DNA of 64,000 bases from a virus (IMGVR_UViG_3300031853_000019:1-64000), one strand, 5' to 3'; shown: positions 1 to 13,231, numbered from the stretch's first letter. Program-made: numbers and translations. The notes: a model not told the origin generated them from the letters alone.

Positions 1-461
1 CCTTTAAGTTTGCTTTCATCAATATAATTTCTTGAATAATCAAGATTTAAATAATAACCCGCTTTATATCCAAGTTCAGTAATTCTCTTACAGAACTCAA
101 CATTCATCTGAGTAATCAAATTACGATCAGGATATACACCATTATTACGAGCATAGTTCATTGAATCATATTCCCAGTCAAAGTAAACTCCTAAATCAAT
201 CTTGTCTTTGTATTTAGAAATTACCGAATTACAGAACTCTGCTTCCTGCCTAGCTGCTGAAGTTGTATAAGCATAGCTAAACCAATAAATACCAATATGA
301 AGTCCTGCCTTAATAGCACCGGTAATATGATTTACAAATTCATTATCTACAGTAGAAGAACCAAATCCCGCACGAATAATAACTCCACTAATGCCTGAAG
401 CTTTTGCGGTATTGTAATTAATATTTTCATTCCATGTAGATACATCTATTAATTTCTGCAT
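1..461 (-). CDS. GH25 muramidase endolysin, N-terminal part (runs off window start)
   Basis: Manual translation MQKLIDVSTWNENINY...GVIIRAGFG...GIYWFSYA...GVYFDWEY has the GH25 DVS and DxE motifs; GAGGAG RBS upstream. Confidence 0.85.
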   Translation of the reverse strand, partial: MQKLIDVSTWNENINYNTAKASGISGVIIRAGFGSSTVDNEFVNHITGAIKAGLHIGIYWFSYAYTTSAARQEAEFCNSVISKYKDKIDLGVYFDWEYDSMNYARNNGVYPDRNLITQMNVEFCKRITELGYKAGYYLNLDYSRNYIDESKLK

Positions 462-491
462 ATTAATTTCTCCTCTCTTTTGATTTATATA

Positions 492-695
492 TTAAGGCTG
501 TAATATCCATTGGGATTGATGATTTAATAAATAAACTGCACCAGTCCCAATAACAGTTACTTTACTACCAGTTCCGCATATTGGTTGCACTGGTAGCTCA
601 GAAAGATATTCAGCTGAATCTATTACATATTCTGTATAATAACTTCCACTCTGTGAATTTTGGTAAACAGCAGAATAATGCTTAGTTTGCACCAT
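492..695 (-). CDS. small hypothetical protein, similar to 10973..11155
   Basis: ORF track; GGAGG RBS; shared LP-x-G(T/S)GS-x-V-x-VI pattern. Confidence 0.7.
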   Translation of the reverse strand: MVQTKHYSAVYQNSQSGSYYTEYVIDSAEYLSELPVQPICGTGSKVTVIGTGAVYLLNHQSQWILQP

Positions 696-877
696 TTTTC
701 AGCCTCCTTTTTAGTTTTCATCTATAATATATATAAAAAAATATAATATTATCTTGAACTATTTTGTCATTAAAAGCAAAACTGAAATAAAAAAGTTGAA
801 AACTGGTTTGAAATTTAGAAACCGAGAGTAACACCCGCAACCCGCCTGAGTACCTACCCATATTCCATAACGCAAAA

Positions 878-900
878 AAGTGGTGCATAAAGCACCACTT
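878..900 (-). terminator. intrinsic terminator after phosphoesterase gene
   Basis: AAGTGGTGC/GCACCACTT inverted repeat, T-run on minus strand. Confidence 0.7.
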
Positions 901-1625
901 TATTCACTAAAATATTTAGCTTCAAATGTATCTAAATCAAGTAAAGCAATCTTCTTACTTTCAATAGTACCTAAATCTATATCAATCTTATGACCTTCCG
1001 CATATATTGCTACTTTAGGATCGTCGTCATTAATATAATACTTTAAATCATATGGATGATAATATCTTAAAGTTTGTGTAGGGGTATGACCATGAACTAT
1101 ATAATCATTATCCCGCGGTGATTCCTTGTCATGGGGCCAGGTCTCATTGATATGATCTCTATCCCAAAGGTAATCTACTCCCCACCTGCAATAAAATGAG
1201 TCAGGAGTAAAACCCGCATGGCTAAGATGTATTTCTTGACCTTTTGCATTTGTATAACTTTTGTACAAAGGAAGATTCTCTACTTCCTTTACCCACTTTA
1301 AAATCTGCTCTTCTGAATAAAGTTCAAAAGTATCAAGTGTTTTCCCGCCACCATTATAAAAAAGCCATAAATCTGCGGAATTAGCACTATAATCATCACT
1401 TAATAGCAAAGGAGTCGTGCGGGAAAAGAATTTTTCATGGTTTCCTTTAATGAAGATAATCCGCGGGTCATTGAAGATTAACTCTAGCATCCTCAAACCC
1501 CCATCCCCGCGATCCATAGCATCACCGAGAAAATATAAAGTATCATCTGCGGCAAGCGAATCTATTAACTTTTTAGCAATATCATAATGTCCGTGCCAAT
1601 CTGAACTAGCATATACTTTGCCCAT
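900..1625 (-). CDS. calcineurin-like metallophosphoesterase (phage Ser/Thr phosphatase-like)
   Basis: DxH (SDWHG), GDxxDRG (LGDAMDRG), GNHE, HAG and GHT motifs. Confidence 0.9.
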   Translation of the reverse strand: MGKVYASSDWHGHYDIAKKLIDSLAADDTLYFLGDAMDRGDGGLRMLELIFNDPRIIFIKGNHEKFFSRTTPLLLSDDYSANSADLWLFYNGGGKTLDTFELYSEEQILKWVKEVENLPLYKSYTNAKGQEIHLSHAGFTPDSFYCRWGVDYLWDRDHINETWPHDKESPRDNDYIVHGHTPTQTLRYYHPYDLKYYINDDDPKVAIYAEGHKIDIDLGTIESKKIALLDLDTFEAKYFSE

Positions 1626-1670
1626 CGTGATTACTCCTTTTCTTTTGTATATTGAGTAATCAAGATGGAG

Positions 1671-3173
1671 CTAGTCCACCTTGATTACCTCGTATCTATC
1701 GGCAAGAAGCACCTTCAGCATCATGTCTGTTGCAGTCAAACCAGCCATTACTGCTTCCATCTGTGACATTGAGAAGCCAGAGATGTAATTGAAGGAATCT
1801 CCAATCGCAGGAATGTTGTTTGTTCTAGCGTCTAAGTTCCAGAAGGTAACCTTAGGAAGCTTATAGCCATGAGCATTGAACTTCTTCTCCATGCGCTCAA
1901 GCAGAGTACCTACTGTTGCAGAGGTAACACCATCAAAGCGTTCAGTTCTCCATATACCGCCGCCACCGCAAGCTGCATCAAACTCCATATCGGAAAAGAT
2001 GTAAAGTCTTGCGGGAAGGTCGGTCTGGGATGCCTTAGTCTTGAGAGCAGTGTCTAAGATCAAGTCAAAGACCTTCTCAAGGTTAGTGTTCATGCCCCAG
2101 TCTGCCTGAATACATCTTTTTACCTTATCAACAATGTTATCTCCTTCAAACTCTACGAGCTGAGGGTTCGCGCTAAAGGTAATGAAGTGTCCAGCGAAAG
2201 GACCATGTGACTTCTCGGCTACATATGCCCCCATACCGACTGCCGCCGCTACAGGAGTACCATACATAGAGCCAGATACATCAACTACCGCAATAGCATT
2301 TTCCTCACGACCGCAGTAGTAATCCTTCAGGTTATCCCAATACTTCTGCATTGTTGCTTCAAAAACATCATCAGATATATCGTACCTATTCTTATAAAGA
2401 ATCTTATCAACAATATTAACAGGGTTAAGCACTGCTGCATTAACCTTAGTTGTCTTGCTCTCCATAAATGCCTTATATCTTGCGGCAGTTACTTCCTTAA
2501 CCGCAAAAGCATTTCTGTACTTCATGCCCGCAACAGAAGGAATCTTATCGAACTGGATTTCATCCCATCTATTTTCAGACATAAGTCTTTCAAGCACATT
2601 AATCTTCTCTCTAAGACTAGAAAGAATCTTTCTATAAGTCTTAGGGGACATATTAAACTGCTTCATGAAGTATCTAGCCATCTCCTTAGTAGTTGTGCTA
2701 GATGCGTTCTCAGAAGGCATCCACTTACCAAGAAGAGAAGGAACTTCACAATGAGTATCCTCAAGAAGCTGTCTGTGTACAATATCTCCCATAGTAGATA
2801 CAAGAGGAGTATTGTAACAAATCTTAATCAAATCATCCCATCTACCGAACTCAGGAATGACATTTAAGAACTTTGCAGCGATCTCTACATCGTTCTTAAT
2901 TAACCAGCGGTAAGCAACTCTGAAGAAGCGTCTTTCGCCCTGACCGCCACGTACATCACGAAGATAGAACAAGCACTTCATAGCGAGGTTCTTATCCTGG
3001 CGGTAAGCATCTCCGAAAAGTGCTTCTACTTCCTTATCTGTTCTATTGCGGTAAGCGCCGCCTATAGAGAACATATCCAAGACATGATCCAGCGTAGAGT
3101 TATGCTTAACCGCACCATTTTCGGTATATCCAAAGTTAGTTTCGTTCTTTAATCCATTTAAAAATGCTGACAT
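1671..3173 (-). CDS. DUF2828 / TROVE-like protein with C-terminal vWA domain (Ro60-like)
   Basis: TENGA, RDVRGGQGER, GRWDDL, KWMPSE motifs; MIDAS DVSGSM and SDMEF. Confidence 0.85.
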   Translation of the reverse strand: MSAFLNGLKNETNFGYTENGAVKHNSTLDHVLDMFSIGGAYRNRTDKEVEALFGDAYRQDKNLAMKCLFYLRDVRGGQGERRFFRVAYRWLIKNDVEIAAKFLNVIPEFGRWDDLIKICYNTPLVSTMGDIVHRQLLEDTHCEVPSLLGKWMPSENASSTTTKEMARYFMKQFNMSPKTYRKILSSLREKINVLERLMSENRWDEIQFDKIPSVAGMKYRNAFAVKEVTAARYKAFMESKTTKVNAAVLNPVNIVDKILYKNRYDISDDVFEATMQKYWDNLKDYYCGREENAIAVVDVSGSMYGTPVAAAVGMGAYVAEKSHGPFAGHFITFSANPQLVEFEGDNIVDKVKRCIQADWGMNTNLEKVFDLILDTALKTKASQTDLPARLYIFSDMEFDAACGGGGIWRTERFDGVTSATVGTLLERMEKKFNAHGYKLPKVTFWNLDARTNNIPAIGDSFNYISGFSMSQMEAVMAGLTATDMMLKVLLADRYEVIKVD

Positions 3174-3232
3174 AACTTTTTCTCCTTTTCTCTCTTTTGT
3201 ATATATATTATATCAAAAATTTGCAAAAAAAT

Positions 3233-3260
3233 AAAGGCTTAACTATTAAGCTAAGCCTTT
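3233..3260 (-). terminator. terminator at end of tRNA cluster
   Basis: AAAGGCTT/AAGCCTTT inverted repeat followed by T-rich tract on minus strand. Confidence 0.6.
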
Positions 3261-3309
3261 GTAATAAAATCTACCTCATTATATAATAATGGAGGACACG
3301 GTAGATAGA

Positions 3310-4135
3310 AGTACCATGTAGGAGTTGAACCTACTTGCGCGGAGTGCATTAAAAATGCTTATAATAATTCCCATTCCTCCTTTGAATAATTATTAATATC
3401 ACTTTTCTTTCTTGGAAGGGAATAACTATCACACCATTTTCTTATTGCATTATCAGTTACTCCAAATATTTTTCCTATTTCTGTAAAAGGCTTTTCTCTT
3501 ATTAATTGTTTTAATTTTTCTCGATCTGGTCTTTCTATTACTTTTCTTCTAGTTTTATTAATACAAGATAGACATAACCCTTCTCTACTAATTATATTTC
3601 CACATTCTTTGCAAAAATATTTTTTTGTTTTGCATTGAGAAGAAATATTATATAACTCATCATCTGTCATTCTATAATAACTATTTAATATATTTTCTGC
3701 AAGATATTGAGTATCAGTAAGTTTAATTGTCTTTTGATTTGATGTTTCATCTACTGGAATTAAATAAACCTTATCTTTCCATACAGTTGCAAAATAATCT
3801 ATTTCATCAGAAGTATATTTATGCTTTGAATGATTACTACTTTTCATATTATTTTGAGTGCAACATTGAAAAGTAAAAGATGATTCATTATTTTGAATAG
3901 ATTTTTTAGTTTGAATTTTTAAAATTTCATAACCAGTATCAACAATTAAATCATATCTTGATGCATTGTAGCTAGGTATTGAAATATCAAAACCATATCT
4001 TAAAAATTCTTCTTGGACTTTTAATTCTATAATTTGCCCCTTAAATAAATTTAATCTACTTGGTTCCATTTTACATTTAGGAATTAAATAAGTTTTTTAA
4101 TGCAGTCCGCTGCATAGCCGTTCTGCCAATGATAC
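3310..4135 (-). tRNA. tRNA-Cys(GCA) split by a 755-nt insertion in the anticodon loop (5' half 4135-4101, 3' half 3345-3310)
   Basis: Halves join to GTATCAT/ATGGTAC acceptor, GCGGA-CTGCA|AC-TCCGC anticodon arm, GTAGG-TTCAACT-CCTAC T arm, U73 discriminator. Confidence 0.85.
3359..4069 (-). CDS. PD-(D/E)XK homing endonuclease (I-Ssp6803I-like) with C-terminal Zn finger and HTH, inside tRNA-Cys
   Basis: KGQIIE...SRYDLIVD...KIQTK...YTSDEIDYFA; CxxC...CxxC; IGKIFGVTDNAIRKW. Confidence 0.8.
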   Translation of the reverse strand: MEPSRLNLFKGQIIELKVQEEFLRYGFDISIPSYNASRYDLIVDTGYEILKIQTKKSIQNNESSFTFQCCTQNNMKSSNHSKHKYTSDEIDYFATVWKDKVYLIPVDETSNQKTIKLTDTQYLAENILNSYYRMTDDELYNISSQCKTKKYFCKECGNIISREGLCLSCINKTRRKVIERPDREKLKQLIREKPFTEIGKIFGVTDNAIRKWCDSYSLPRKKSDINNYSKEEWELL

Positions 4136-4140
4136 AATTA

Positions 4141-4217
4141 TTACAAAGGACAATTATAATATGATAAGATAATCAAGATAAATTCATTGTTAATATAATT
4201 TGCTGTACGTCCTTTAA
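4141..4217 (-). ncRNA. CAGCAA-stem RNA copy 3 (candidate Y-like RNA)
   Basis: AAAGGAC-GTA-CAGCAAAT...GTCCTTT-GTAA. Confidence 0.55.
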
Positions 4218-4222
4218 AGAAT

Positions 4223-4295
4223 TTACAAGACACACCTTTTCGCTCTTTACAATCCCAAATTATACGCTAAAAAGAATTTGCTGCAAGTGTCTTAA
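4223..4295 (-). ncRNA. CAGCAA-stem RNA copy 2 (candidate Y-like RNA)
   Basis: AAGACAC-TTG-CAGCAAAT...GTGTCTT-GTAA. Confidence 0.55.
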
Positions 4296-4612
4296 CAAAA
4301 AATTAAAATAGTCTAGCCTGCAACTGGGGGACAACCACCGCCCTCCTACTCCAAAGTACTCGTCAGTCTCGGCGTGAATAAGGGTCTCTATTCACTAAGT
4401 TGTATCTAGCACTTTTGTGCCCGTCGGCACAGATCTAAAAAATTAATCCGCATACTCTATCGCTGGCGGTTCGCGTAGTGATATTTAGTACATTTCACTT
4501 CTCCTTTTTTCTGTTGAAATGGAAAGCCTTTACACTAATCACAGTCTAAACTAAAAGTCACATCCTCTTGACCATTTCTGTTCTCTAGAATCCCGTACTT
4601 TGGTCTGATGAG

Positions 4613-4685
4613 TAGCGGAGACGGGACTCGAACCCGTAACCCCCTGCCTATGAAACAGGTAACCTTCCAATTGGTCTACTCCGCG
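4613..4685 (-). tRNA. tRNA-Met(CAT), initiator-like (unpaired C1)
   Basis: Cloverleaf; CCTGT-TTCATAG-GCAGG; C1:U72 mismatch. Confidence 0.85.
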
Positions 4686-4692
4686 TTATTAG

Positions 4693-4766
4693 TTGGGGTA
4701 CAGGGACTTGAACCCTGGACCTCTAGAACCCAAATCTAGCGCTCTACCAAACTGAGCCACACCCCA
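4693..4766 (-). tRNA. tRNA-Pro(TGG)
   Basis: Cloverleaf; CTAGA-TTTGGGT-TCTAG. Confidence 0.9.
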
Positions 4767-4770
4767 ATAT

Positions 4771-4913
4771 TTACAAAGCGAAGAAAGAGGATTCTTGGAG
4801 CCAGGAGTAGTTTAAGCACACCTCTTTCAATTCAGACATAACTACTCATTTAACAGCGATCATTAATAATATTTTCAAATAACTTGCAATAAATTTGCTG
4901 AAATTCGCTTTAA
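4771..4913 (-). ncRNA. CAGCAA-stem RNA copy 1 with internal H-type pseudoknot
   Basis: AAGCGAA-TTT-CAGCAAAT...TTCGCTT-TGTAA; interleaved GAGTAGTT/AACTACTC and AAAGAGG/CCTCTTT. Confidence 0.55.
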
Positions 4914-5155
4914 TATATTAAAACTAAGAATCATTCCACGGCTTCCCACTTTATAGCCGAAATTTTTGTGCACCATCAGGGTACTGTTGTATCACAAATC
5001 TCTTCGGAGCGACCGTTACGACTTAGGTGACCTCGTGCGTGAGGCAATTCTTCAGTTTTAATTTCTTCGTTTAATATATATTGAGCATATATGAACTCTA
5101 AGATGTCTTTAATTTCTTCTGTTTTTGTCATATTTACTGCTCACTTTCTATATAT

Positions 5156-5184
5156 ATTATATAATAAATTTTTATAAATTTCAA
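5156..5184 (-). promoter_or_regulatory. sigma70/SigA-type promoter, AT-rich phage class; also at 7209-7237, 7928-7956, 8855-8883, 11549-11577 and upstream of many genes to 22.5 kb
   Basis: TTGA(A/T)(A/T)-17 nt-TATAAT with recurring TTTATAAAAATTT spacer and TATATA after the -10. Confidence 0.8.
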
Positions 5185-5194
5185 ATATTTTTAT

Positions 5195-5321
5195 TTACTA
5201 GACACGGTATAATATCTCTGAGGCTTTACCAATTAAGCTATAGAGTGAGTTGACTCTAGTGGGACTCGAACCCACAAAAATCAGACTTAGCACGATATGA
5301 ATTATTGCTGGCTGTGTCTAA
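5195..5321 (-). ncRNA. YrlA-like Y RNA: circularly permuted tRNA mimic closed by a CAGCAA stem
   Basis: TAGACAC/GTGTCTA end stem; TCTGA/TCAGA; T arm GTGGG-TTCGAGT-CCCAC placed BEFORE loop-closed acceptor TAGAGT-CAACTC-ACTCTA and D arm GCTT-AATTGGTA-AAGC. Confidence 0.75.
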
Positions 5322-5322
5322 G

Positions 5323-5394
5323 CTCCCCGAGTAGGACTCGAACCTACAACAGCTCGGTTAACAGCCGAGTGCTCTACCATTGAGCTACCGGGGA
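5323..5394 (-). tRNA. tRNA-Asn(GTT)
   Basis: Cloverleaf; CTCGG-CTGTTAA-CCGAG. Confidence 0.95.
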
Positions 5395-5444
5395 TCAAGA
5401 GCGGTTAGACTATATCTCAAACCTAACCGCTTTTGTTAGTTTAA

Positions 5445-6266
5445 TTAACCTAACAATGAAAGGACGCCTTGAGTAGACTGATTTGCCTGTGCAAGCATAG
5501 ACTGAGCAGCTTGCTGAAGAATATTATTCTTAGTGTAATTAGTCATCTCAGCAGCCATATCTGTATCACGAATCTGGCTTTCTGCAGATGTTAAATTTTC
5601 ACTATAATTCTTCAAATTATTAATTGTATATTCAAGTCTATTCTGTTTTGCGCCAAGAGAAGATCTTGCAGCGGAAACAGTCTTAATAGCATTAGTTACT
5701 CTGCTCATTGTAGCGGCTGCCGCACTGTGGCTATCAACCGCGATTGCAGATGCACCCGCAAGAGAAAGTCCTGATGTATCCATCTTTGCAATATCAATCT
5801 GCATATTTTCACCTGCATTAGCACCTACTTGAAGTTGCTTGCCAGTGAAAGAACCATCAAGAAGTTTAGTTCCATTGAACTGAGCCTTATTAGCAATAGA
5901 ATCAATCTCTGCCTGAAGTTCAGTCATTTCGTCTTTGATAGCATCTCTATCTTCATCTGCATTAATATCGTTAGCTGCCTTGTTAGACAATTCACCCATG
6001 CGCTGAAGAATAGAATGAATCTCATTAAGATTACCTTCTGCTGTCTGAATGGCGGAAATGCCATCCTCAGAGTTCTTAACTGCTTGATTGATACCACGGA
6101 TCTGATTTCTCATTTTCTCACTGATGGAGAGACCAGCTGCATCGTCTGCTGCACGGTTTACTCCAAAGCCAGAAGAAAGTTTCTCTGTGCTCTTTGCTAC
6201 TGCTTTCACATTCTGTGATAACATTCTGTTTGTATTTGCTGCTTGTAAATTGTGTTGTACTACCAT
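5445..6266 (-). CDS. fliC: flagellin (D0/D1 only, 273 aa), Lachnospiraceae-type
   Basis: MVVQHNLQAANTNRML...EKLSSG...AADDAAGLSISEKMRNQIRG...; C-terminus RSSLGAKQNRLE...SQIRDTDMA...AQANQSTQGVLSLLG; GGAGG RBS before ATG at 6266. Confidence 0.97.
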   Translation of the reverse strand: MVVQHNLQAANTNRMLSQNVKAVAKSTEKLSSGFGVNRAADDAAGLSISEKMRNQIRGINQAVKNSEDGISAIQTAEGNLNEIHSILQRMGELSNKAANDINADEDRDAIKDEMTELQAEIDSIANKAQFNGTKLLDGSFTGKQLQVGANAGENMQIDIAKMDTSGLSLAGASAIAVDSHSAAAATMSRVTNAIKTVSAARSSLGAKQNRLEYTINNLKNYSENLTSAESQIRDTDMAAEMTNYTKNNILQQAAQSMLAQANQSTQGVLSLLG

Positions 6267-6288
6267 AGTAATTACCTCCTTGTAAATA

Positions 6289-6308
6289 ATACTACTTCCT
6301 TGTAGTAT
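6289..6308 (-). promoter_or_regulatory. CsrA-type site: GGA in a hexaloop hairpin in the flagellin leader
   Basis: ATACTAC-AAGGAA-GTAGTAT; second ACAAGGAGG overlaps the RBS. Confidence 0.55.
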
Positions 6309-6345
6309 GTACTTTTTCATTGTTACTAGCGCGAACGCGCTTTAT

Positions 6346-6417
6346 CACCTCTACGGGACTTGAACCCAGTATCTGGAGATTGAGAGTCTCCTATCCTAGC
6401 CACTTAGACGAAGAGGC
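6346..6417 (-). tRNA. tRNA-Glu(CTC)
   Basis: Cloverleaf; GGAGA-CTCTCAA-TCTCC. Confidence 0.9.
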
Positions 6418-6422
6418 GTTAT

Positions 6423-6493
6423 CACTCCAGCGGGACTTGAACCCAGCATCTAAGCCTTGAAAGAGCTTTATCCTAGCCTTTAGAAGATGGAGC
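6423..6493 (-). tRNA. tRNA-Glu(TTC)
   Basis: Cloverleaf; AAGCT-CTTTCAA-GGCTT. Confidence 0.9.
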
Positions 6494-6645
6494 GTAGAGG
6501 GGAGCTATCCCATCAAATATATTTATTAATAAGATAGCTCTATTATAAATTACTTGTATTTAAGTTAAACCCTGTTTAGCATCTTTAGTTTCGCTATAAG
6601 TCTTGTGAGGTAAACGGGTTAGAAAAACATCTCAGACTGACACAA

Positions 6646-6717
6646 AGCTCCCCATGGGACTCGAACCCACAGTAACCTCATTACAAGTGAGGGGCATTAC
6701 CATTATGCTAAAGGAGC
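6646..6717 (-). tRNA. tRNA-Thr(TGT)
   Basis: Cloverleaf; CCTCA-CTTGTAA-TGAGG. Confidence 0.9.
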
Positions 6718-6893
6718 AAATAACCGAGTGAGTAGTTTCAACCTCACGCATCCTTGGCGGGTTCAACGAATCGTAACTAGGGTAGCTTACGCGGATTGGT
6801 TACCGCCGCCCTTTGTGGTGTCTCCCCACTGCTTCCCGCCATACAGGCTTTATTCTCTTCACGGCTTTTAATGCTTGCCTATCGGTTATTAAT

Positions 6894-7006
6894 ATGCGGG
6901 TAAGGATTTGCACCCTACATGATAAGCATTCCTACTTGTCCATTAAACGGATCTTCGTATCTTATCTAACAATAAGCCTTAGCGTTTACCTATTCCGCCA
7001 CCGCAA
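6894..7006 (-). ncRNA. tRNA-Leu-like RNA with an expanded, non-canonical central region
   Basis: TGGCGGAATAGGTAAACGC D arm, TAGGG-TGCAAAT-CCTTA T arm, TGCGG/CCGCA acceptor; about 60 nt insert, no normal anticodon arm. Confidence 0.55.
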
Positions 7007-7245
7007 ATGGTCTTTCCTAGTTATTGTCCTTCAGTCCCAACTGGCTGACAGTATAAGATAAGGGGAAAACCTCGAAGGGATTACATTGGAATGTTTCACA
7101 TCCCTTATCTTATTGGTTAAGGAGGTGGATATTTCAGACTCTCACCATTATTGATTCGTCCACTCTTCTGTTTATTGGATTTCTGTCATCTCTTAACCTT
7201 ACATATATATTATATAATAATTTTTTATAAATTTCAAATTTAAAA

Positions 7246-7318
7246 TGTGCCCGGTGGGATTTGAACCCACGATACCTGGATTAAAAGTCCAGTGCCATAA
7301 CCTCTAGGCGACGGGCAC
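7246..7318 (-). tRNA. tRNA-Lys(TTT)
   Basis: Cloverleaf; CTGGA-CTTTTAA-TCCAG. Confidence 0.93.
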
Positions 7319-7322
7319 TTAG

Positions 7323-7403
7323 TACTCCCGGTGGGACTCGAACCCACACGCTCTAAGCCTAGGATTTTAAGTCCTATATGTCTACCCATTCCATCACGGG
7401 AGC
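7323..7403 (-). tRNA. tRNA-Leu(TAA)
   Basis: Cloverleaf with long variable arm; TAGGA-CTTAAAA-TCCTA. Confidence 0.93.
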
Positions 7404-7411
7404 CTAATTAA

Positions 7412-7483
7412 TAGGGAGATTGGGACTTGAACCCAAAAGACAACCTTATCAGAGTTACATGATAACCTTTTCATCATCTCCCT
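7412..7483 (-). tRNA. tRNA-Ile(GAT)
   Basis: AGGGAGA/TCTCCCT acceptor; TAACT-CTGATAA-GGTTG (two G-U pairs). Confidence 0.8.
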
Positions 7484-7492
7484 TTAAAATAA

Positions 7493-7563
7493 CTGGGGTG
7501 CTGGGATTTGAACCCAGTCGCCAAGAGTCAAAGTCTTGTGTGCTACCTTTACACTACACCCCA
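7493..7563 (-). tRNA. tRNA-Gln(TTG)
   Basis: Cloverleaf; CAAGA-CTTTGAC-TCTTG. Confidence 0.93.
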
Positions 7564-7572
7564 ATATTAAAA

Positions 7573-7646
7573 TGGACATTCAGGGACTTGAACCCTAGAC
7601 CGATGGTTTATGAGACCATTGCTCTAACCAACTGAGCTAAATGTCC
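7573..7646 (-). tRNA. tRNA-Met/Ile2(CAT), elongator type
   Basis: Cloverleaf; ATGGT-CTCATAA-ACCAT. Confidence 0.9.
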
Positions 7647-7650
7647 ATAA

Positions 7651-7723
7651 CAGGCACCGTAGGACTTGAACCCACACCGTACAGTTTTGGAGACTGCCGT
7701 GCTACCATTTACACCAGATACCT
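7651..7723 (-). tRNA. tRNA-Trp(CCA)
   Basis: Cloverleaf; GCAGT-CTCCAAA-ACTGT. Confidence 0.9.
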
Positions 7724-7960
7724 ATAAACCCGTAAAGGGAAGTGAGTTTGAGTTATTGGCATATAAACCCTACATTCTTCTCAAAATACGCCTTTTCTAT
7801 GTCCAAAAAGAACACTTGTGTTAAATAAGCCATAGCCAGCACCAGCACCAGATTTTAACGAGTTTACTCTCGATAATGAATAAGAAACTTTTCTTCATAA
7901 ATACTTCATTTCTCATTCACTATAATTATTATATAATAATTTTTATTACTTTTCAAATAA

Positions 7961-8040
7961 TGCGGGCGGAGGGACTTGAACCCTCACGGTTTCCCACGAG
8001 TTCCTAAGGCTCGCGTGTCTGCCAATTCCACCACACCCGC
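7961..8040 (-). tRNA. tRNA-Leu(TAG)
   Basis: Cloverleaf with variable arm; CGAGC-CTTAGGA-ACTCG. Confidence 0.92.
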
Positions 8041-8045
8041 ATAAG

Positions 8046-8131
8046 CGCCGTGTAAAGGACTCGAACCTCTACTACCGTTAAGTAGACTACGGTTTTCAAG
8101 ACCGCTGCAATACCAATTCTGCCAACACGGC
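8046..8131 (-). tRNA. tRNA-Ser(TGA)
   Basis: Long variable arm; GCGGT-CTTGAAA-ACCGT. Confidence 0.92.
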
Positions 8132-8135
8132 ATAG

Positions 8136-8219
8136 CGCCACCACCGCGACTCGAACGCAGACAGCCGTTAAGCTGGACTCCTTAGCAGGGAGCTAGGATA
8201 CCTATTACCTCATAGTGGC
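8136..8219 (-). tRNA. tRNA-Ser(GCT)
   Basis: Long variable arm; GCTCC-CTGCTAA-GGAGT. Confidence 0.88.
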
Positions 8220-8330
8220 TTTTTTATTTTGATATTTTTTAACTTTTGTATAGAGATGTTTGTTAGCATAAAATAAATCTAACATATTGAAAATATCTTG
8301 AATTGTTTTCATATATTATCTCCTTTCAAA

Positions 8331-8404
8331 TACGAGCGGTGGGGATCGAACCCACATAAAGCAGGTTTAGAAGACCTGTGCCTATCCAATTGGGCGACGC
8401 CCGT
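8331..8404 (-). tRNA. tRNA-Arg(TCT)
   Basis: Cloverleaf; CAGGT-CTTCTAA-ACCTG. Confidence 0.92.
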
Positions 8405-8410
8405 AGATAA

Positions 8411-8484
8411 TAGATCCCAAGGGACTCGAACCCTCAACCTTTTCGTTCGTAGCGAACTGCTCTATTCCATTGAGCTAAGGATCT
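8411..8484 (-). tRNA. tRNA-Arg(ACG)
   Basis: Cloverleaf; GTTCG-CTACGAA-CGAAA. Confidence 0.9.
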
Positions 8485-8488
8485 ATAG

Positions 8489-8560
8489 TACCGACAGAGG
8501 GACTTGAACCCACAACTTCTTCCTTGTAAGGGAAGCACTCTCCCATTGAGTTATGTCGGT
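8489..8560 (-). tRNA. tRNA-Val(TAC)
   Basis: Cloverleaf; CTTCC-CTTACAA-GGAAG. Confidence 0.92.
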
Positions 8561-8564
8561 ATAG

Positions 8565-8647
8565 TGGGCAGGGATGGACTCGAACCATCGGTGTTTCTAA
8601 TGTAACAGATTTACAGTCTGCCGCCTTCGCCACTAGGCTACCTACCC
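8565..8647 (-). tRNA. tRNA-Tyr(GTA)
   Basis: Variable arm; GCAGA-CTGTAAA-TCTGT. Confidence 0.93.
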
Positions 8648-8879
8648 TTATACATAGTTTCTCTGCCTGTTTAGTTTTAGGTCGTCTCTGCCTTCAGAAA
8701 CTATGAAACCCTGTTTTGACGACCACAATGCGCGAGCACAACCTCGCTAGTAGGGGTCTATCCCCTAGAGTTCCCCGCCGTAACGCCGCAGGTAGTGGGA
8801 CTTAGATCTAACTCCTCGATAAAGTTTTTATTTATTTCTTAACTTTATGTATATATTATATAAAAAATTTTTATAAAAA

Positions 8880-9506
8880 TCAATATTCCGCATTAAGAGC
8901 TTGTATTTCATCCATCATTAAACCATATAACTCTTTATTACTTGGTATATATGGATAGAATATAGTGCTATCAGCTTTGTAAGTATCTTCTAAAATAATC
9001 ATTGGTGACCATACAAGATTATTAACTGTTTGACCTTCACATATTCTTAATGTAACTTTAAAAGAAGCTGGCTGATAAAGTTCTAAAACATCTCCTAAAC
9101 CAGTGTCAAGAAATTCAGCTGATAAAGTTGATTGATAAGCCGCACAATATGTACTTGAGCTACCTCCACTAGGACATAATTTAACAAACCATTTTCCGTT
9201 AAGATCAATAGTATAATCAGTATCATATCCGCTATGCGCAGTTCCATCAGGACTTGTTAAAACAAATTCTGAATTACCGCCTGAACAAGTACCATTAGCA
9301 GTAACCGTTCCCGCCATATGATCAACGACCCATGTAATACCATTATTTGTGTAGGTGGTTACATTTAAAGGTAATGGACATTTATTAATATTACCATTAT
9401 CCATATTGTTTTTCCAAGAAATATAACTTTTAAACTTCCCACCAATCTCACCAACAATAGTTTCTGCATCTCCATAAGCTACAAAATTTTTTCTATCATT
9501 TGACAC
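8880..9506 (-). CDS. hypothetical beta-rich virion-type protein
   Basis: ORF track; N-terminus (NFVAYGDAETIVGEIG.KF) resembles that of the neighbouring ORF. Confidence 0.6.
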   Translation of the reverse strand: MSNDRKNFVAYGDAETIVGEIGGKFKSYISWKNNMDNGNINKCPLPLNVTTYTNNGITWVVDHMAGTVTANGTCSGGNSEFVLTSPDGTAHSGYDTDYTIDLNGKWFVKLCPSGGSSSTYCAAYQSTLSAEFLDTGLGDVLELYQPASFKVTLRICEGQTVNNLVWSPMIILEDTYKADSTIFYPYIPSNKELYGLMMDEIQALNAEY

Positions 9507-9542
9507 TTTTTATTCTCCTTTCTTTAAATTTTTTATATAAAA

Positions 9543-10244
9543 TTAATCAAGAAGAGCAAGAAGTGCATTAATCTGCTCTGTTGTTAAGCTCTCAGGCTCT
9601 GCTTCTGCAATAAGGTCAGCGATATTCTTCTTATCAACTTCAGTAGCATCCCAAGGATCATTTGCTGTATGAGCAGTTTTAAACTTATAAAGTTCATTAT
9701 TATAAACAACAATATCACCAATAGCATAAGCCTGTGTATCATCGAATTCATCAGCAATCATAGCTTCGATTTCTTCAGTGATTGCAGATACATCTGAGAA
9801 GCCTGCACATACATCAAACTTATAGATTGCGGTAACAACTTTCTCATAATAAGTTGTACCTTGAACAACAATAGTATCTTCAGTAAGAATATATTCTCCT
9901 GCGTGATCAGGATCTTCCACATACCAGCCTTCCTCAGAAGGATTCTCCTTTCCCGTAGGAGTTACTTCATTATAAGATGTAGTAGATACATCTGCAATAG
10001 CAATATCTGTTCCAGCGGGAAAAGTCTTAGGACTAAGTGGATCATATTCTACGAATCTATTGTCAATAGTGAATTCATTAGTAACATTATATACATTACC
10101 AACCATTGATTTGGTTAAAACTGCGGGCAGGTTTGCAAAAGTGCTAGAACCTCTAAAGACAAAAGCGCCTTCAACAGTTTCAAATTTTTCACCAATTTTA
10201 CGCATTAAAGCTTGCGCATTATTATAAGAAACAAAATTTCCCAT
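9543..10244 (-). CDS. putative virion protein with CBM5/12-like repeat
   Basis: FDDTQAYAIGDIVVYNNELYKFKTAHT...W motif. Confidence 0.6.
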   Translation of the reverse strand: MGNFVSYNNAQALMRKIGEKFETVEGAFVFRGSSTFANLPAVLTKSMVGNVYNVTNEFTIDNRFVEYDPLSPKTFPAGTDIAIADVSTTSYNEVTPTGKENPSEEGWYVEDPDHAGEYILTEDTIVVQGTTYYEKVVTAIYKFDVCAGFSDVSAITEEIEAMIADEFDDTQAYAIGDIVVYNNELYKFKTAHTANDPWDATEVDKKNIADLIAEAEPESLTTEQINALLALLD

Positions 10245-10258
10245 TGTTTAATTCCTCC

Positions 10259-10948
10259 TTATATAAGGTCTAATAATTGCGTCATCTGTTGCTCAGTTAA
10301 CGCTTCAATATTTTCTTGCGCCCCAATATTCTCCCACTCATACAAACCAGGAGTGGATGTTTCAGTACAAGTATAAAAATAGCCTTTAGTAAAGTTTTGA
10401 GTTGTATCCCCAATGTACTGAACAATTTTAGTGCTATATGTACTACTTGCCGCGGGCATAGTTGAATACTGAGCAGTATATCTTTGCGGTATCCAATTTG
10501 TACCATCCCAAAGATAGAAGAATCCATCCTCTATTGAGTAGTATAATTTTCTATCTATTGAACTAAAACCAGAAGGTAGTAAAGTTGCATTTTCAACGAT
10601 ACTATAATCGCCATCTGCGACGCCACCAATCTTATCCCATTTTGCGGGATTAAATACTGCATCGCTATTTGCGGTTTTACAAGTATAAAAGTTTAAAGCA
10701 TAAAGAGCTAAATCTCCAACTTTATAACTTTCACCTGATTCCCAAGTATATATTGGAGTTCCATCAAGAACTGTTATTTCAGTTTCTTCAGTTGTTCCGC
10801 TATATCCTTTCCATTCAAATACTATTTTAGTCCGACCATTCTCATGAACAGCAGACTTAATAGTACATGGAGATCCTTTTACCGCACCTAGCGCATCAGC
10901 AGTTTTATCAGTATATTTTTTTGCTAAAGCATAAGTAACAATATCCAA
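10259..10948 (-). CDS. putative virion protein with CBM5/12-like repeat
   Basis: WESGESYKVGDLALYALNFYTCKTAN...W motif; C-terminus similar to previous ORF (EALTEQQ/ESLTTEQ). Confidence 0.6.
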   Translation of the reverse strand: MDIVTYALAKKYTDKTADALGAVKGSPCTIKSAVHENGRTKIVFEWKGYSGTTEETEITVLDGTPIYTWESGESYKVGDLALYALNFYTCKTANSDAVFNPAKWDKIGGVADGDYSIVENATLLPSGFSSIDRKLYYSIEDGFFYLWDGTNWIPQRYTAQYSTMPAASSTYSTKIVQYIGDTTQNFTKGYFYTCTETSTPGLYEWENIGAQENIEALTEQQMTQLLDLI

Positions 10949-10972
10949 TGGAGAACCTCCCCTCTTTATTTA

Positions 10973-11155
10973 TTATATTTCATGCCAATGCTTATCATTT
11001 CCAAGCATCCATACAGAAGAATCTTCTATTACAAAAACAGTGGAGCCGCTGCCATATGTAGTAGGGATAGTCTCTACTTCATCTCTTGCATCAGCTACTA
11101 TCTCTATAATATCAGAGCTTATTTCATTACCAGTTTTACTAACTCTATATGCCAT
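10973..11155 (-). CDS. small hypothetical protein, similar to 492..695
   Basis: ORF track; AAGGAGG RBS before MAYRV. Confidence 0.7.
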   Translation of the reverse strand: MAYRVSKTGNEISSDIIEIVADARDEVETIPTTYGSGSTVFVIEDSSVWMLGNDKHWHEI

Positions 11156-11243
11156 ATTGATCATCCTCCTTTAAAGAATTTTCTTCCATATATAATATGA
11201 AAACTCTAAAAAGAAACATAACCATTTTTGTCCAAAAAAATAA

Positions 11244-11266
11244 AGCACCTCTATTATAGAGGTGCT
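11244..11266 (-). terminator. terminator after tRNA-Gly
   Basis: AGCACCTCT/AGAGGTGCT followed by T-run on minus strand. Confidence 0.7.
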
Positions 11267-11269
11267 ATA

Positions 11270-11341
11270 AGCCCGTAGTGGGAATCGAACCCACTTCTCC
11301 TCGTTGGAAGCGAGGAATTCTAGCCGGTAAACTATACGGAC
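11270..11341 (-). tRNA. tRNA-Gly(TCC)
   Basis: Cloverleaf; CCTCG-CTTCCAA-CGAGG. Confidence 0.92.
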
Positions 11342-11370
11342 ATAGCGGGCAACCTAGGTTACCCGTAACT

Positions 11371-11511
11371 TTAAGCGGCGGTAGCCGCTAATGTTTGAAT
11401 TTCTACTAGATCAAATCTACCACGAATAAAGTTGACTTCTGCCATACTGGTAACAAAAGCCATATGTTTCTTATAAAAATCATCAATATAAATTACCATA
11501 TACTTTTTCAT
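11371..11511 (-). CDS. 46-aa microprotein ending in ...LAATAA (below ORF-track cutoff)
   Basis: Manual translation MKKYMVIYIDDFYKKH...; AAGGAGG RBS; own promoter at 11549-11577. Confidence 0.65.
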   Translation of the reverse strand: MKKYMVIYIDDFYKKHMAFVTSMAEVNFIRGRFDLVEIQTLAATAA

Positions 11512-11580
11512 AAAAATCCTCCTTTATTCGTTCACATTTGTTATATATATTATATAACAAATTTTTATAAAAATCAAATT

Positions 11581-12510
11581 TTACCAATCTGTGTAAACAT
11601 CAATTAATCCTGTTCTACTACCATCAGGACTAACATGATCGTAGACTACTGCTTTGCCAAATGGTGTGTCAACTTCTGCACCATAATCCATGCCGTCAAT
11701 AGCAACACAAATTCTTCCATCACCATCACATACAAAGCCATCTTCGTTTACATGGCGGCCAGGGATAGATAAGCCTTCGCCTGGTAATGCTCTCTGGCTA
11801 TACCAAGTATAATCATATGAACCATCATTGGCTCTGCCCTGTGAGCGGAAAGGATGGTCATAACCACTTCCCGCTTCATAAGATACACTATAATCTGTGT
11901 TAGTGTAAATTACTACTGGCTCATCTACCAAGAACTCGCCCCATGCAAAATAAAGGCTGCCGCCCGCATCAATAAGATCCCATCCATTTTCAGAGATGCC
12001 TACTACTTTTACTTCTTCATTAGTTCCAAGAATAATAGTAGGTTCAACTTCCATATTTGGAGCTTCTCTTAGGTACAAGTCTGTTGATGCGTATTTAGTT
12101 TTATCAACAATAGGTGCATACCATGATACACTTCCAGACAGGTTTGATACATAATATGCGTCATTCTTCTTCTCTATTCTATAAATTGTTGCCTTGTTAT
12201 AACTGGTCTGATTAGAAACATCAAAACCATTGTCTGTTCTATCTGCAAAAATCTCATCTGCGGTTTTGTGCAGTTGAGCTGGTGTCAAAGTTACATCTGT
12301 TACTGTTGCCACTTCAATAGAAGCATTAGCATCAGTAGCTGTTGCGGCATCTGCATCTGTTGCAGTTGCATTAGTCATCGTTGCATCTGAAGGTGTTGCA
12401 ATACCCGCTTCTTTTTCGTTTGCTATCGCAAATGTTGCGCATAATACTCCAAAAAAACAAAGTGCTACTAAAATAATAGTTGCAACTAACCTACCTATAA
12501 ATTCTTTCAT
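11581..12510 (-). CDS. secreted cell-wall protein: signal peptide, ATxxDA repeats, SH3b, 3D-like C-terminal domain
   Basis: MKEFIGRLVATIILVALCFFG...; YASTDLYLREAP...GWDLI; C-terminal VYDH...IDVY. Confidence 0.65.
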   Translation of the reverse strand: MKEFIGRLVATIILVALCFFGVLCATFAIANEKEAGIATPSDATMTNATATDADAATATDANASIEVATVTDVTLTPAQLHKTADEIFADRTDNGFDVSNQTSYNKATIYRIEKKNDAYYVSNLSGSVSWYAPIVDKTKYASTDLYLREAPNMEVEPTIILGTNEEVKVVGISENGWDLIDAGGSLYFAWGEFLVDEPVVIYTNTDYSVSYEAGSGYDHPFRSQGRANDGSYDYTWYSQRALPGEGLSIPGRHVNEDGFVCDGDGRICVAIDGMDYGAEVDTPFGKAVVYDHVSPDGSRTGLIDVYTDW

Positions 12511-12602
12511 TGTTATTTTCTCCTTTTTCTTTTTAATGTTCCATAGAATAAACAAAACTTATTAAGGAACCTATATAAGAAAAATATCGAAAAACGCTGA
12601 AA

Positions 12603-12872
12603 TTATTTTCTTTTTGTGCATTTTTCCCAGTATTGTAGATATTCTTCTAAAGTTTCTTTGGGATCATCTTTTGTATGCTCCCAATCTTTTATTGCTTGAT
12701 CTTTTGTCCATATCCAACACCAATCAGATATATTCCAAGATTCAAAGCATTTTCTATATGAACCACCATTGGGAATGTCTAATATATGACGGACTTTTTT
12801 GTTTGCATACCGCTTTACATATTTATTTGCGGGTTGCTTGCAAACAGGAAATTTCTTATAACTTCTACTCAT
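12603..12872 (-). CDS. hypothetical phage protein
   Basis: ORF track, RBS. Confidence 0.7.
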   Translation of the reverse strand: MSRSYKKFPVCKQPANKYVKRYANKKVRHILDIPNGGSYRKCFESWNISDWCWIWTKDQAIKDWEHTKDDPKETLEEYLQYWEKCTKRK

Positions 12873-12928
12873 AATTAAACACTCCTTTCTGTATGGTTAT
12901 TTATTTTATTTTTTTCGCTTAATGGATT

Positions 12929-13231
12929 TTACTGAAATGCCCAATGATTGTTTCGCGCTTGCTTATTAATCCACAAAACATATCTATGGCAATCGGCATA
13001 GTTCTTCCAAGTATAAGTTAATAATGACTTACCATTATTTGCATTAGGGTAGAATACAAAATCAGTCGCATTAAACTCATTCTTGAGTTTTAAGATCCAT
13101 TCTTCAAGAGATAAACCTAATAATCGGGCGGGGATATACCATAAGTTACTATCATGGGCGAGGTCAGACTGGTCTCCCGCATGCCACATGCCAGTTGGAC
13201 TCTGCCATTCTTCAACCTTATAGATTCTCAT
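12929..13231 (-). CDS. hypothetical phage protein
   Basis: ORF track, AGGAGG RBS. Confidence 0.7.
   Translation of the reverse strand: MRIYKVEEWQSPTGMWHAGDQSDLAHDSNLWYIPARLLGLSLEEWILKLKNEFNATDFVFYPNANNGKSLLTYTWKNYADCHRYVLWINKQARNNHWAFQ

Follow-up and report, generated by a model that had tools for sequence, protein, structure and literature searches.

A phage tRNA-Cys gene split by a mobile endonuclease gene without a detectable ribozyme, the ends of which pair through both exon junctions

The 64,000 nucleotides (nt) of IMGVR_UViG_3300031853_000019:1-64000, hereafter the window, belong to an 82.7-kb phage record of IMG/VR with 35% guanine plus cytosine and an estimated completeness of 61%. 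Described here is one transfer RNA (tRNA) gene of this phage, the 71-nt tRNA-Cys(GCA), which is located on the minus strand (4135..3310) and broken between nucleotides 36 and 37 by a 755-nt insert carrying a gene for a homing endonuclease (Table 1). The split gene lies at the end of an array of about 20 tRNA genes on the minus strand and is missed by ARAGORN in its default setting as well as by the Rfam tRNA model. As the phage has a GH25 lysin, a bacterial flagellin and genes led by a Shine-Dalgarno sequence, its host is judged to be bacterial, and probably a member of the Bacillota.

With introns allowed, ARAGORN returns the same 826-nt span with a 755-nt intron, and removal of the insert in silico leaves a 71-nt tRNA-Cys(gca). 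The 3′ exon starts with ACTCCGC, and CCA is not encoded. Since the last intron bases are complementary to the anticodon, several splice registers yield a seven-membered loop; the Gly(GCC) call of ARAGORN, with the intron one base earlier, and its Arg(CCG) call are ruled out by the identity elements and by an empty site in a relative. The tRNA carries the discriminator U73 and lacks G3:U70 as well as C2:G71 or G3:C70, and its anticodon arm is the same as that of an uninterrupted phage tRNA-Cys adjoining the insert of a relative (L006). U73, this match and the exactness of the empty site together define the gene as Cys(GCA) with the break after nucleotide 36. The dimensions given in the first-pass annotation, which had described an open reading frame (ORF) of 711 nt with 31 nt upstream and 13 nt downstream, are all reproduced by the sequence and by ARAGORN. 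It had also called this tRNA-Cys the only one in the cluster, and ARAGORN finds no other in the entire 82.7-kb record.

No ribozyme is recognizable in the insert. Rfam searches gave no match to group I introns (RF00028) or other ribozymes in positions 3250-4200, even at expect (E) values up to 10 with lax filters, and none to group I introns in positions 1-13000 at E<=1 or in the tRNA array of a relative. A search of the whole record with RF00028 produced weak matches elsewhere and none within the insert; one of the former, outside the window at C1:78751-78917 (-), spans the full model with 21.4 bits and E 1e-4. The non-coding part of the insert amounts to 44 nt only. In the family described below, the base at position -1 of the 5′ junction is A in 32 of 33 distinct junctions, G in the remaining one and never U, and the intron ends on C in the window and on G, C or A in relatives, with no conserved omega-G. 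No sign of an RNA element hidden in the coding sequence emerged from a scan of synonymous sites, in which 34 distinct homologues were codon-aligned and the share of identical codons was determined among pairs with the same amino acid; this share is flat along the ORF (0.51-0.76, mean 0.64). The first-pass annotation had held that a group I core is missing and had named a covariance-model search beforehand as the test of this claim, and that search of the insert returned no match.

The encoded protein matches Pfam family PF11645 (PDDEXK_5) over residues 10-117 with E 3.5e-16 and 59.9 bits, compared to a cut-off of 26.1. Residues ~1-120 comprise the PD-(D/E)XK domain, while residues ~150-236 hold a CxxC...CxxC zinc ribbon and a helix-turn-helix (HTH) as a DNA-binding module. 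A profile built from 12 homologues matches I-Ssp6803I (2OST) with the YDL..D...LK(I/V)Q.K motif aligned, and D40, D44, Q53, K55 and the four cysteines are invariant in these homologues. The AF2/AlphaFold model (predicted local distance difference test, pLDDT, 81) has I-Ssp6803I (2OST, E 2.9e-6) as its best Foldseek match, followed by the SPARDA nuclease and Hjc resolvases, and EndA is not among the structural matches of this model. A domain like the C-terminal 90 residues also terminates HNH and GIY-YIG homing endonucleases from phages of Bacillus, Enterococcus and Staphylococcus. On account of the PF11645 and 2OST matches and of this C-terminal domain shared with other homing endonucleases, the protein is assigned, from sequence and predicted structure, as a modular DNA homing endonuclease of the I-Ssp6803I type, and the resemblance to I-Ssp6803I seen at first pass is thereby borne out at the level of family score, catalytic motif and fold. 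No Shine-Dalgarno sequence precedes the ATG of the ORF. Across the family, all 37 homologous ORFs examined are intact.

A metagenome protein set contains 433 relatives of the protein at E<=1e-5, most of them 229 residues long and about 65% identical. From IMG/VR, JGI metagenomes, ENA/Logan assemblies and one Clostridia metagenome-assembled genome, 37 loci with 33 distinct junctions were collected. The host genes are tRNA-Trp(CCA) in 24 loci, an amber suppressor tRNA(CUA) in seven, tRNA-Cys(GCA) in four, tRNA-Gln(UUG) in one and a Trp-like tRNA with the anticodon UUA in one. In every one of them the insert sits at 36|37 and the ORF is co-oriented with the tRNA (37/37 each), with a leader of 11-45 nt and a trailer of 9-19 nt. 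Once the insert is removed in silico, ARAGORN calls a tRNA at 36 of the 37 loci, or at 35 if L032 is set aside, for which the anticodon had four bases until the 3′ boundary was corrected by hand; L053, which is not called, was placed by hand. The identity marks correspond to the hosts (U73 for Cys; A1:U72 and G73 for Trp), and for 28:42 to 31:39 of the anticodon stem every one of 132 cells is paired, compensations included. About five changes of host tRNA are seen on the endonuclease tree, with supports of 97/96 for the Cys clade and 98/99 for one suppressor clade. Diverged tRNA-Trp genes that differ in their stems harbor near-identical endonucleases, which active homing would lead one to expect. 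A distant homologue (L033, 41% identity) is free-standing and adjoins the 3′ half of a tRNA.

The comparison of related phages for empty sites, which had been proposed at first pass, brought to light an exact one. In L012 (IMGVR_UViG_3300045988_163304) a homologous insert of 738 nt interrupts tRNA-Trp, whereas L021 (IMGVR_UViG_3300045988_140174), a genome of 197.7 kb that is complete and bears terminal repeats, has at this point the sequence ...GCGGTCTCCA|AAACCGC... of an intact tRNA-Trp(CCA), in flanks 97% identical to those of L012. This exact site fixes the boundaries of the family at 36|37. The complete genome has one tRNA-Trp, and the L012 phage has none besides the interrupted one. For the tRNA-Cys of the window itself, no intron-less allele is present in IMG/VR. 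By sequence comparison, the insert is mobile.

Many of the relatives are TAG-recoded phages (including L003, L006-L009, L012-L015, L056 and L063) in which tRNA(CUA) is present. Around L063, where the insert lies in tRNA(CUA), none of 31 ORFs in 19.6 kb ends in TAG and no other tRNA(CUA) is seen; related recoded phages carry a single tRNA(CUA). In-frame TAG codons, one to three per ORF at positions where the window has Gln, occur in endonuclease ORFs of these relatives; the count is zero to three for ORFs located in the tRNA-Trp of recoded phages, and none is present in those inside tRNA(CUA) (7/7). At L051 (ODAJ012158948.1, a 158-kb contig) a Trp-type insert with the intron end UGG occurs in a tRNA with the loop UUUUA, the anticodon UUA of which pairs with UGG via G.U; its acceptor stem has two U x U mismatches. 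From its sequence, this is a host tRNA in decay or else a derivative of an ochre suppressor.

The two junctions of the insert are embedded in a long helix. The junction sequences TGCATTAAAAA and TTTTTAATGCA pair perfectly over 11 base pairs (bp) from U33:A37 on, and the CTTA/TAAG pairs, reported at first pass as their extension, do follow, separated from them by a 1x2 internal loop. Both the minimum-free-energy and the centroid fold of the whole precursor retain the cloverleaf together with a rod of about 30 bp (z = -3.4). Within the rod, 27-31 pair with 39-43, 32 and 38 form a mismatch, U33 pairs with A37, and the anticodon is paired with the last three intron nucleotides (34:n, 35:n-1, 36:n-2), which in the window are its complement TGC. 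Intron nucleotides i1-i7 are paired with n-3 to n-9, after which a conserved internal loop, A (i8) versus CA, leads to CUU(A)/(U)AAG with the stop codon.

In the 33 distinct junctions 95% of the cells are standard pairs, compared to 77.7 +/- 0.9% in column shuffles (maximum 80.4%) and 26-52% in controls with slid partners, and in the first 12 loci 17 of 19 pairs exhibit compensatory changes on both sides. The anticodon is tracked by the final three bases of the intron (GCA/UGC, CCA/UGG, CUA/UAG, UUG/CGA), also over the roughly five host switches on the endonuclease tree, and because of this tracking the helix is preserved without a break across both junctions. G.U pairs occur often on the sense strand, where the opposite strand would have A.C. 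As judged from this covariation, the rod is selected for, and on the transcribed sense strand. The junctions are situated 3 bp apart on opposite strands and are related by a pseudo-dyad at nucleotide 35, with 7 bp on each side (27-33 and i1-i7).

Table 1. Features of the split tRNA-Cys gene and of its surroundings in the window.
Feature	Coordinates	Strand	Description
tRNA-Cys(GCA) 5′ exon, nt 1-36	4101..4135	-	acceptor GTATCAT, D arm, anticodon stem GCGGA, loop CTGCA; A36 = 4101
Intervening sequence, 755 nt, between nt 36 and 37	3346..4100	-	sequence read and ARAGORN; no Rfam family match
Endonuclease ORF, 711 nt including stop, 236 residues	3359..4069	-	leaves 31 nt upstream and 13 nt downstream
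tRNA-Cys 3′ exon, nt 37-73	3310..3345	-	AC, TCCGC, 4-nt variable loop, T arm GTAGG/CCTAC, acceptor ATGGTAC, U73
Rod, 5′ strand	4076..4110	-	anticodon stem 27-31, U33, anticodon 34-36, intron nt 1-7, unpaired A (i8), CTTA, TAATTCC
Rod, 3′ strand	3339..3372	-	ORF end GGAATTA, TAAG including stop codon, conserved CA bulge, TTTTTAA, TGC, A37, stem 39-43
Terminator-like hairpin, 12-bp stem and T run	3233..3260	-	about 50 nt past the tRNA 3′ end; 1 found, 0.5 expected
DUF2828/DUF7788 protein (vWA-type, 500 residues) and calcineurin-like phosphoesterase	900-3173	-	directly downstream of the split tRNA
YrlA-like (Y RNA) match	5188-5305	-	38.9 bits, under the gathering score of 69
Flagellin, full length	5445-6320	-	Flagellin_N E 1e-41, Flagellin_C E 2e-28
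tRNA	6422-6494	-	Rfam, 39.6 bits; absent from the ARAGORN list

Several other interpretations of this helix were considered and discarded. A DNA cruciform or hairpin does not explain the frequency of G.U on the sense strand, which argues for RNA. A target-site duplication might be suspected in the window, where TGCA...TGCA is palindromic; the direct-repeat reading is excluded by the tRNA-Trp relatives, as their TCCA...TGGA is an inverted repeat. Mimicry of a tRNA by the intron ends, with trimming by RNase P and RNase Z, is at odds with a bulge on the wrong strand after the 7-bp intron helix and with the lack of an element resembling a T arm. Nor is there a bulge-helix-bulge motif, since from 33:37 on the helix passes both junctions without interruption, in the fold as well as in the 33 junctions, and a corresponding register set up by hand breaks the A31:U39 pair and contains mismatches and no bulges. 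In this respect the first-pass annotation was right. Its comparison of the junction fold with that of archaeal introns holds for no more than an ORF looped out of a helix, as bulges are missing and the site is 36/37 instead of 37/38.

Inserts of related appearance were encountered in other tRNA genes. In Enterococcus phage EFP01 (L062:1414-1949, corresponding to ~105,242-105,777 of KY549443.1) an unannotated tRNA-Asn(GUU) is split after nucleotide 36 by a 463-nt insert which codes for EFP01_109, a short PD-(D/E)XK protein, and masks the anticodon in the same geometry. Among about 30 cultured Enterococcus Schiekvirus relatives EFP01 alone has such an insert, and in about 28 the gene is intact; EFDG1 is one of the intron-less relatives. 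Phage vB_OCPT_Bop has an HNH gene (hegA) at this locus. The phage of L012 harbors a second insert consisting of an ORF only (L022:9977-10960, IMGVR_UViG_3300045988_163304), which comprises 906 nt in another tRNA, encodes a GIY-YIG nuclease followed by the same C-terminal zinc-ribbon/HTH domain, contains in-frame TAG codons and closes with a 7-bp end-to-end helix. It has no Rfam group I match; the tRNA identity is Met, Ile or Arg and the break point ambiguous. A 121-nt insert lacking an ORF follows nucleotide 36 of a tRNA-Glu(UUC) (L023:3436-3632, and the same gene in L025, G004), in the phage with as well as in the one without the tRNA-Trp insert; it matches no Rfam family and its fold is not more stable than those of shuffled sequences. 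Going by its sequence, it could be a second kind of small tRNA intron outside group I. The tRNA array of a relative also contains a match resembling a twister-P1 ribozyme (L022:9024-9076, 41.2 bits, E 5e-6), which is under the gathering score of 67.

In order to place the insert among known elements, it was compared with four systems. The tRNA-fMet gene of Synechocystis PCC 6803 contains a 655-nt group I intron encoding the 150-residue I-Ssp6803I (PMC1995217). The two share the PF11645 endonuclease family, a site in the anticodon loop just 3′ of the anticodon, a co-oriented ORF and presumed homing. With its group I catalytic core of about 200 nt, the cyanobacterial intron is self-splicing, whereas the phage insert is devoid of a core, of U at -1 and of omega-G; its protein has the additional C-terminal zinc-ribbon/HTH domain, and in place of P1 and P10 its termini form pairs among themselves and with the anticodon.

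Bulge-helix-bulge introns of archaea and eukaryotes likewise loop an ORF out of a helix of intron ends and exon, have an anticodon that pairs with the intron and two junctions in pseudo-dyad relation, and depend for their removal on a protein nuclease and a ligase, as the phage insert, if removed at all, would. Some archaeal ribosomal RNA (rRNA) introns carry LAGLIDADG endonuclease ORFs. In contrast to the continuous helix and the 36/37 site of the phage insert, these introns present two 3-nt bulges separated by a 4-bp helix at 37/38; furthermore, the phage host is judged bacterial and the record has no EndA homologue. Free-standing homing genes of phages (T4 seg/mob, 'intron-less homing') are comparable in their mobility, the lack of a ribozyme, varying presence and a modular DNA-binding domain. 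They are intergenic, whereas the insert occupies a set nucleotide position within a tRNA, and pairing with the anticodon has evolved at its termini. Finally, the intervening sequences of bacterial 23S rRNA likewise interrupt the gene of a stable RNA, lack a ribozyme and have ends that form a long basal helix, at which RNase III excises them without religation. The junction stagger is 3 in the phage insert, compared to 2 for RNase III in 23S rRNA. While rRNA works in pieces, a tRNA opened in its anticodon loop would not decode, and for this reason religation would be required in the phage tRNA.

The reading we favour, with a probability of roughly 0.5, is that the insert would be removed from the precursor tRNA by proteins and not by itself; a small part of this figure is reserved for the intron's own enzyme as the cutter. 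At the DNA level, as suggested by the family, the endonuclease would cut intron-less alleles in the anticodon region, and repair would copy the insert in. At the RNA level, the precursor would adopt a normal cloverleaf, the anticodon stem of which runs on into the long rod. Both junctions would be cut by a nuclease reading this rod, and closure of the anticodon loop by an RNA ligase would give a working tRNA-Cys. The nuclease could be supplied by the host or, less probably, be the dimeric or tetrameric one of the insert itself, and the ligase could be the host's RtcB or an Rnl-type enzyme. We infer this splicing, along with the enzymes and the chemistry of the ends, from the observed anatomy, mobility, covariation and absence of a ribozyme.

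Removal at the RNA level is favoured because the helix is exact through both junctions and has been rebuilt after each host switch, because almost every allele has retained its cloverleaf and identity elements, and because the insert is placed like an intron and unlike a free-standing endonuclease gene. A further reason is provided by the seven inserts in tRNA(CUA), which around L063 is apparently the sole suppressor, as a dead suppressor should be costly. The first-pass annotation had left the choice between a spliced minimal intron and an endonuclease that has killed the tRNA. This framing is sound and both possibilities are still live, with the membership in a large mobile family that has an exact empty site, the helix covariation, the intact tRNAs and the suppressor hosts together tilting the balance towards removal from RNA.

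A number of observations weigh against such removal. The 82.7-kb record, which is 61% complete, encodes no RtcB, no EndA-type endonuclease (PF01974) and no Rnl1 or Rnl2 ligase. We know of no bacterial enzyme that cuts twice and precisely 3 bp apart within a continuous RNA helix; RNase III cuts with a 2-nt stagger and would fail to regenerate a loop of 7 nt. Since the alleles entered by homing are always working ones, intact exons are explicable without splicing, and phage tRNAs are accessory, such that their loss may be cheap. L051, with its UUA anticodon and two acceptor mismatches, looks like decay, and the occurrence of the insert class in a single one of about 30 cultured Enterococcus relatives is as expected of a costly or recent parasite.

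Most of these observations fit the strongest of the alternatives, which we regard as possible though doubtful, namely that no splicing occurs and the insert is a selfish homing-endonuclease gene sacrificing a dispensable phage tRNA, with cloverleaf and rod serving the endonuclease gene. The tRNA body would let RNase P and RNase Z free the unit from the array transcript, and the extended stem would act as a stable tRNA scaffold for the messenger RNA and limit its translation. Besides the missing ribozyme and splicing enzymes, the rarity of the class in cultured Schiekviruses, the decayed look of L051 and the ready explanation of intact exons by homing, the variable presence of the insert between phages 97% identical agrees with this, and the missing Shine-Dalgarno sequence of the ORF, together with a 5′ leader and stop codon hidden within the rod, is in keeping with strict control of a toxic nuclease. 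However, a scaffold needs neither a helix that runs exactly through the junctions nor a re-matched anticodon, even if extension of the stem could weakly select for these. Inserts in an apparently single suppressor tRNA should be severely counter-selected, yet they form an old and diverse clade. Endonuclease genes inside other genes otherwise ride on introns or inteins, and free-standing ones are intergenic.

Protein-dependent removal would take a special and, in our judgement, improbable form if the intron's own PD-(D/E)XK enzyme were to splice, the rod being an RNA copy of the left half and the centre of its DNA target that is cut at the equivalent phosphates. Rod positions 27-36 and their partners indeed have the sequence of the DNA target duplex, except for position 32, and the junctions lie on either side of the anticodon triplet with a 3′ stagger of 3 nt; the DNA cut pattern of I-Ssp6803I is reported (Bonocora & Shub 2001) to consist of 3-nt 3′ overhangs around the anticodon. 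In addition, tRNA-splicing endonucleases belong to the PD-(D/E)XK superfamily (PMC3424549), and the complete lack of in-frame TAG in the endonuclease ORFs of suppressor tRNAs, described above, would suit this arrangement, although the TAG count is statistically weak. The fold, on the other hand, is nearest to DNA enzymes (I-Ssp6803I, the SPARDA nuclease, Hjc) and not to EndA, the active site is that of a metal-dependent deoxyribonuclease, A-form RNA is a substrate very unlike B-form DNA, and just half of the target is mimicked. Highly improbable, finally, is self-splicing by a cryptic, much reduced or novel ribozyme, be it a group I core hidden in the ORF or catalysis by the rod: although the closest known relative, I-Ssp6803I, resides in a self-splicing group I intron (PMC1995217) and junctions 3 bp apart across the groove are close in space, the ribozyme searches, the bases at the junctions, the few non-coding nucleotides and the flat synonymous-site profile all speak against it, as does the fact that the ORF encodes in its C-terminal half a true protein domain present in other endonucleases.

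As to the surroundings of the split gene (Table 1), if the terminator-like hairpin beyond its 3′ end is real, tRNA-Cys would be the final gene of the transcript of the tRNA array. The gene encoding the DUF2828/DUF7788 protein is not restricted to the window, as a DUF2828 gene adjoins the insert-bearing tRNA in L005 and L030 too. The YrlA-like match in the array recurs at L023:192-297. Judging from the sequences, the DUF2828 gene and the YrlA-like element may constitute an RNA quality-control or repair module similar to Ro60 and Y RNA. The array also encloses the full-length bacterial flagellin gene, an unusual gene for a phage to carry, and a tRNA that is recognized by Rfam only.

Protein-spliced tRNA introns are a hallmark of archaea and eukaryotes, and to our knowledge all known tRNA introns of bacteria and phages are group I introns that splice themselves. 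In the literature searched, no description of ribozyme-less tRNA inserts was found, and bacterial and phage tRNA introns are described there only as group I. The widest survey of such introns (Williams 2020, 10.1101/2020.01.27.920355) requires a match to a group I model and for this reason would not include the present family. New in this work, at the level of sequence comparison, are a subfamily with a fused DNA-binding domain, its hosts Cys, Trp, suppressor and Gln, the exact empty site, the covariation across host switches, the synonymous-site test and the argument from suppressor tRNAs. In general terms we propose, tentatively and at somewhat less than even odds, that bacteria or their phages may possess a protein-dependent tRNA splicing which would rely on a continuous, pseudo-symmetric 17-bp helix masking the anticodon, two cuts 3 bp apart and religation.

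If this is true, it would represent a third route of tRNA splicing beside group I self-splicing and bulge-helix-bulge splicing by EndA, and in the suppressor tRNA(CUA) of TAG-recoded phages splicing could time the switch of the genetic code. An RNA cutting-and-joining activity not previously known would then operate in bacteria, with a bearing on the role of bacterial RtcB-type ligases and on the origin of protein-dependent introns from mobile endonuclease genes. If the insert is not spliced, the family would clearly exemplify a selfish gene by which phage tRNAs are destroyed, with the tRNA fold used as a scaffold for its expression. Since gene callers miss split tRNAs, the tRNA repertoires of phages, including the suppressors used to predict recoding, are under-counted. 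As EFP01 is available in culture, the question of splicing is directly testable.

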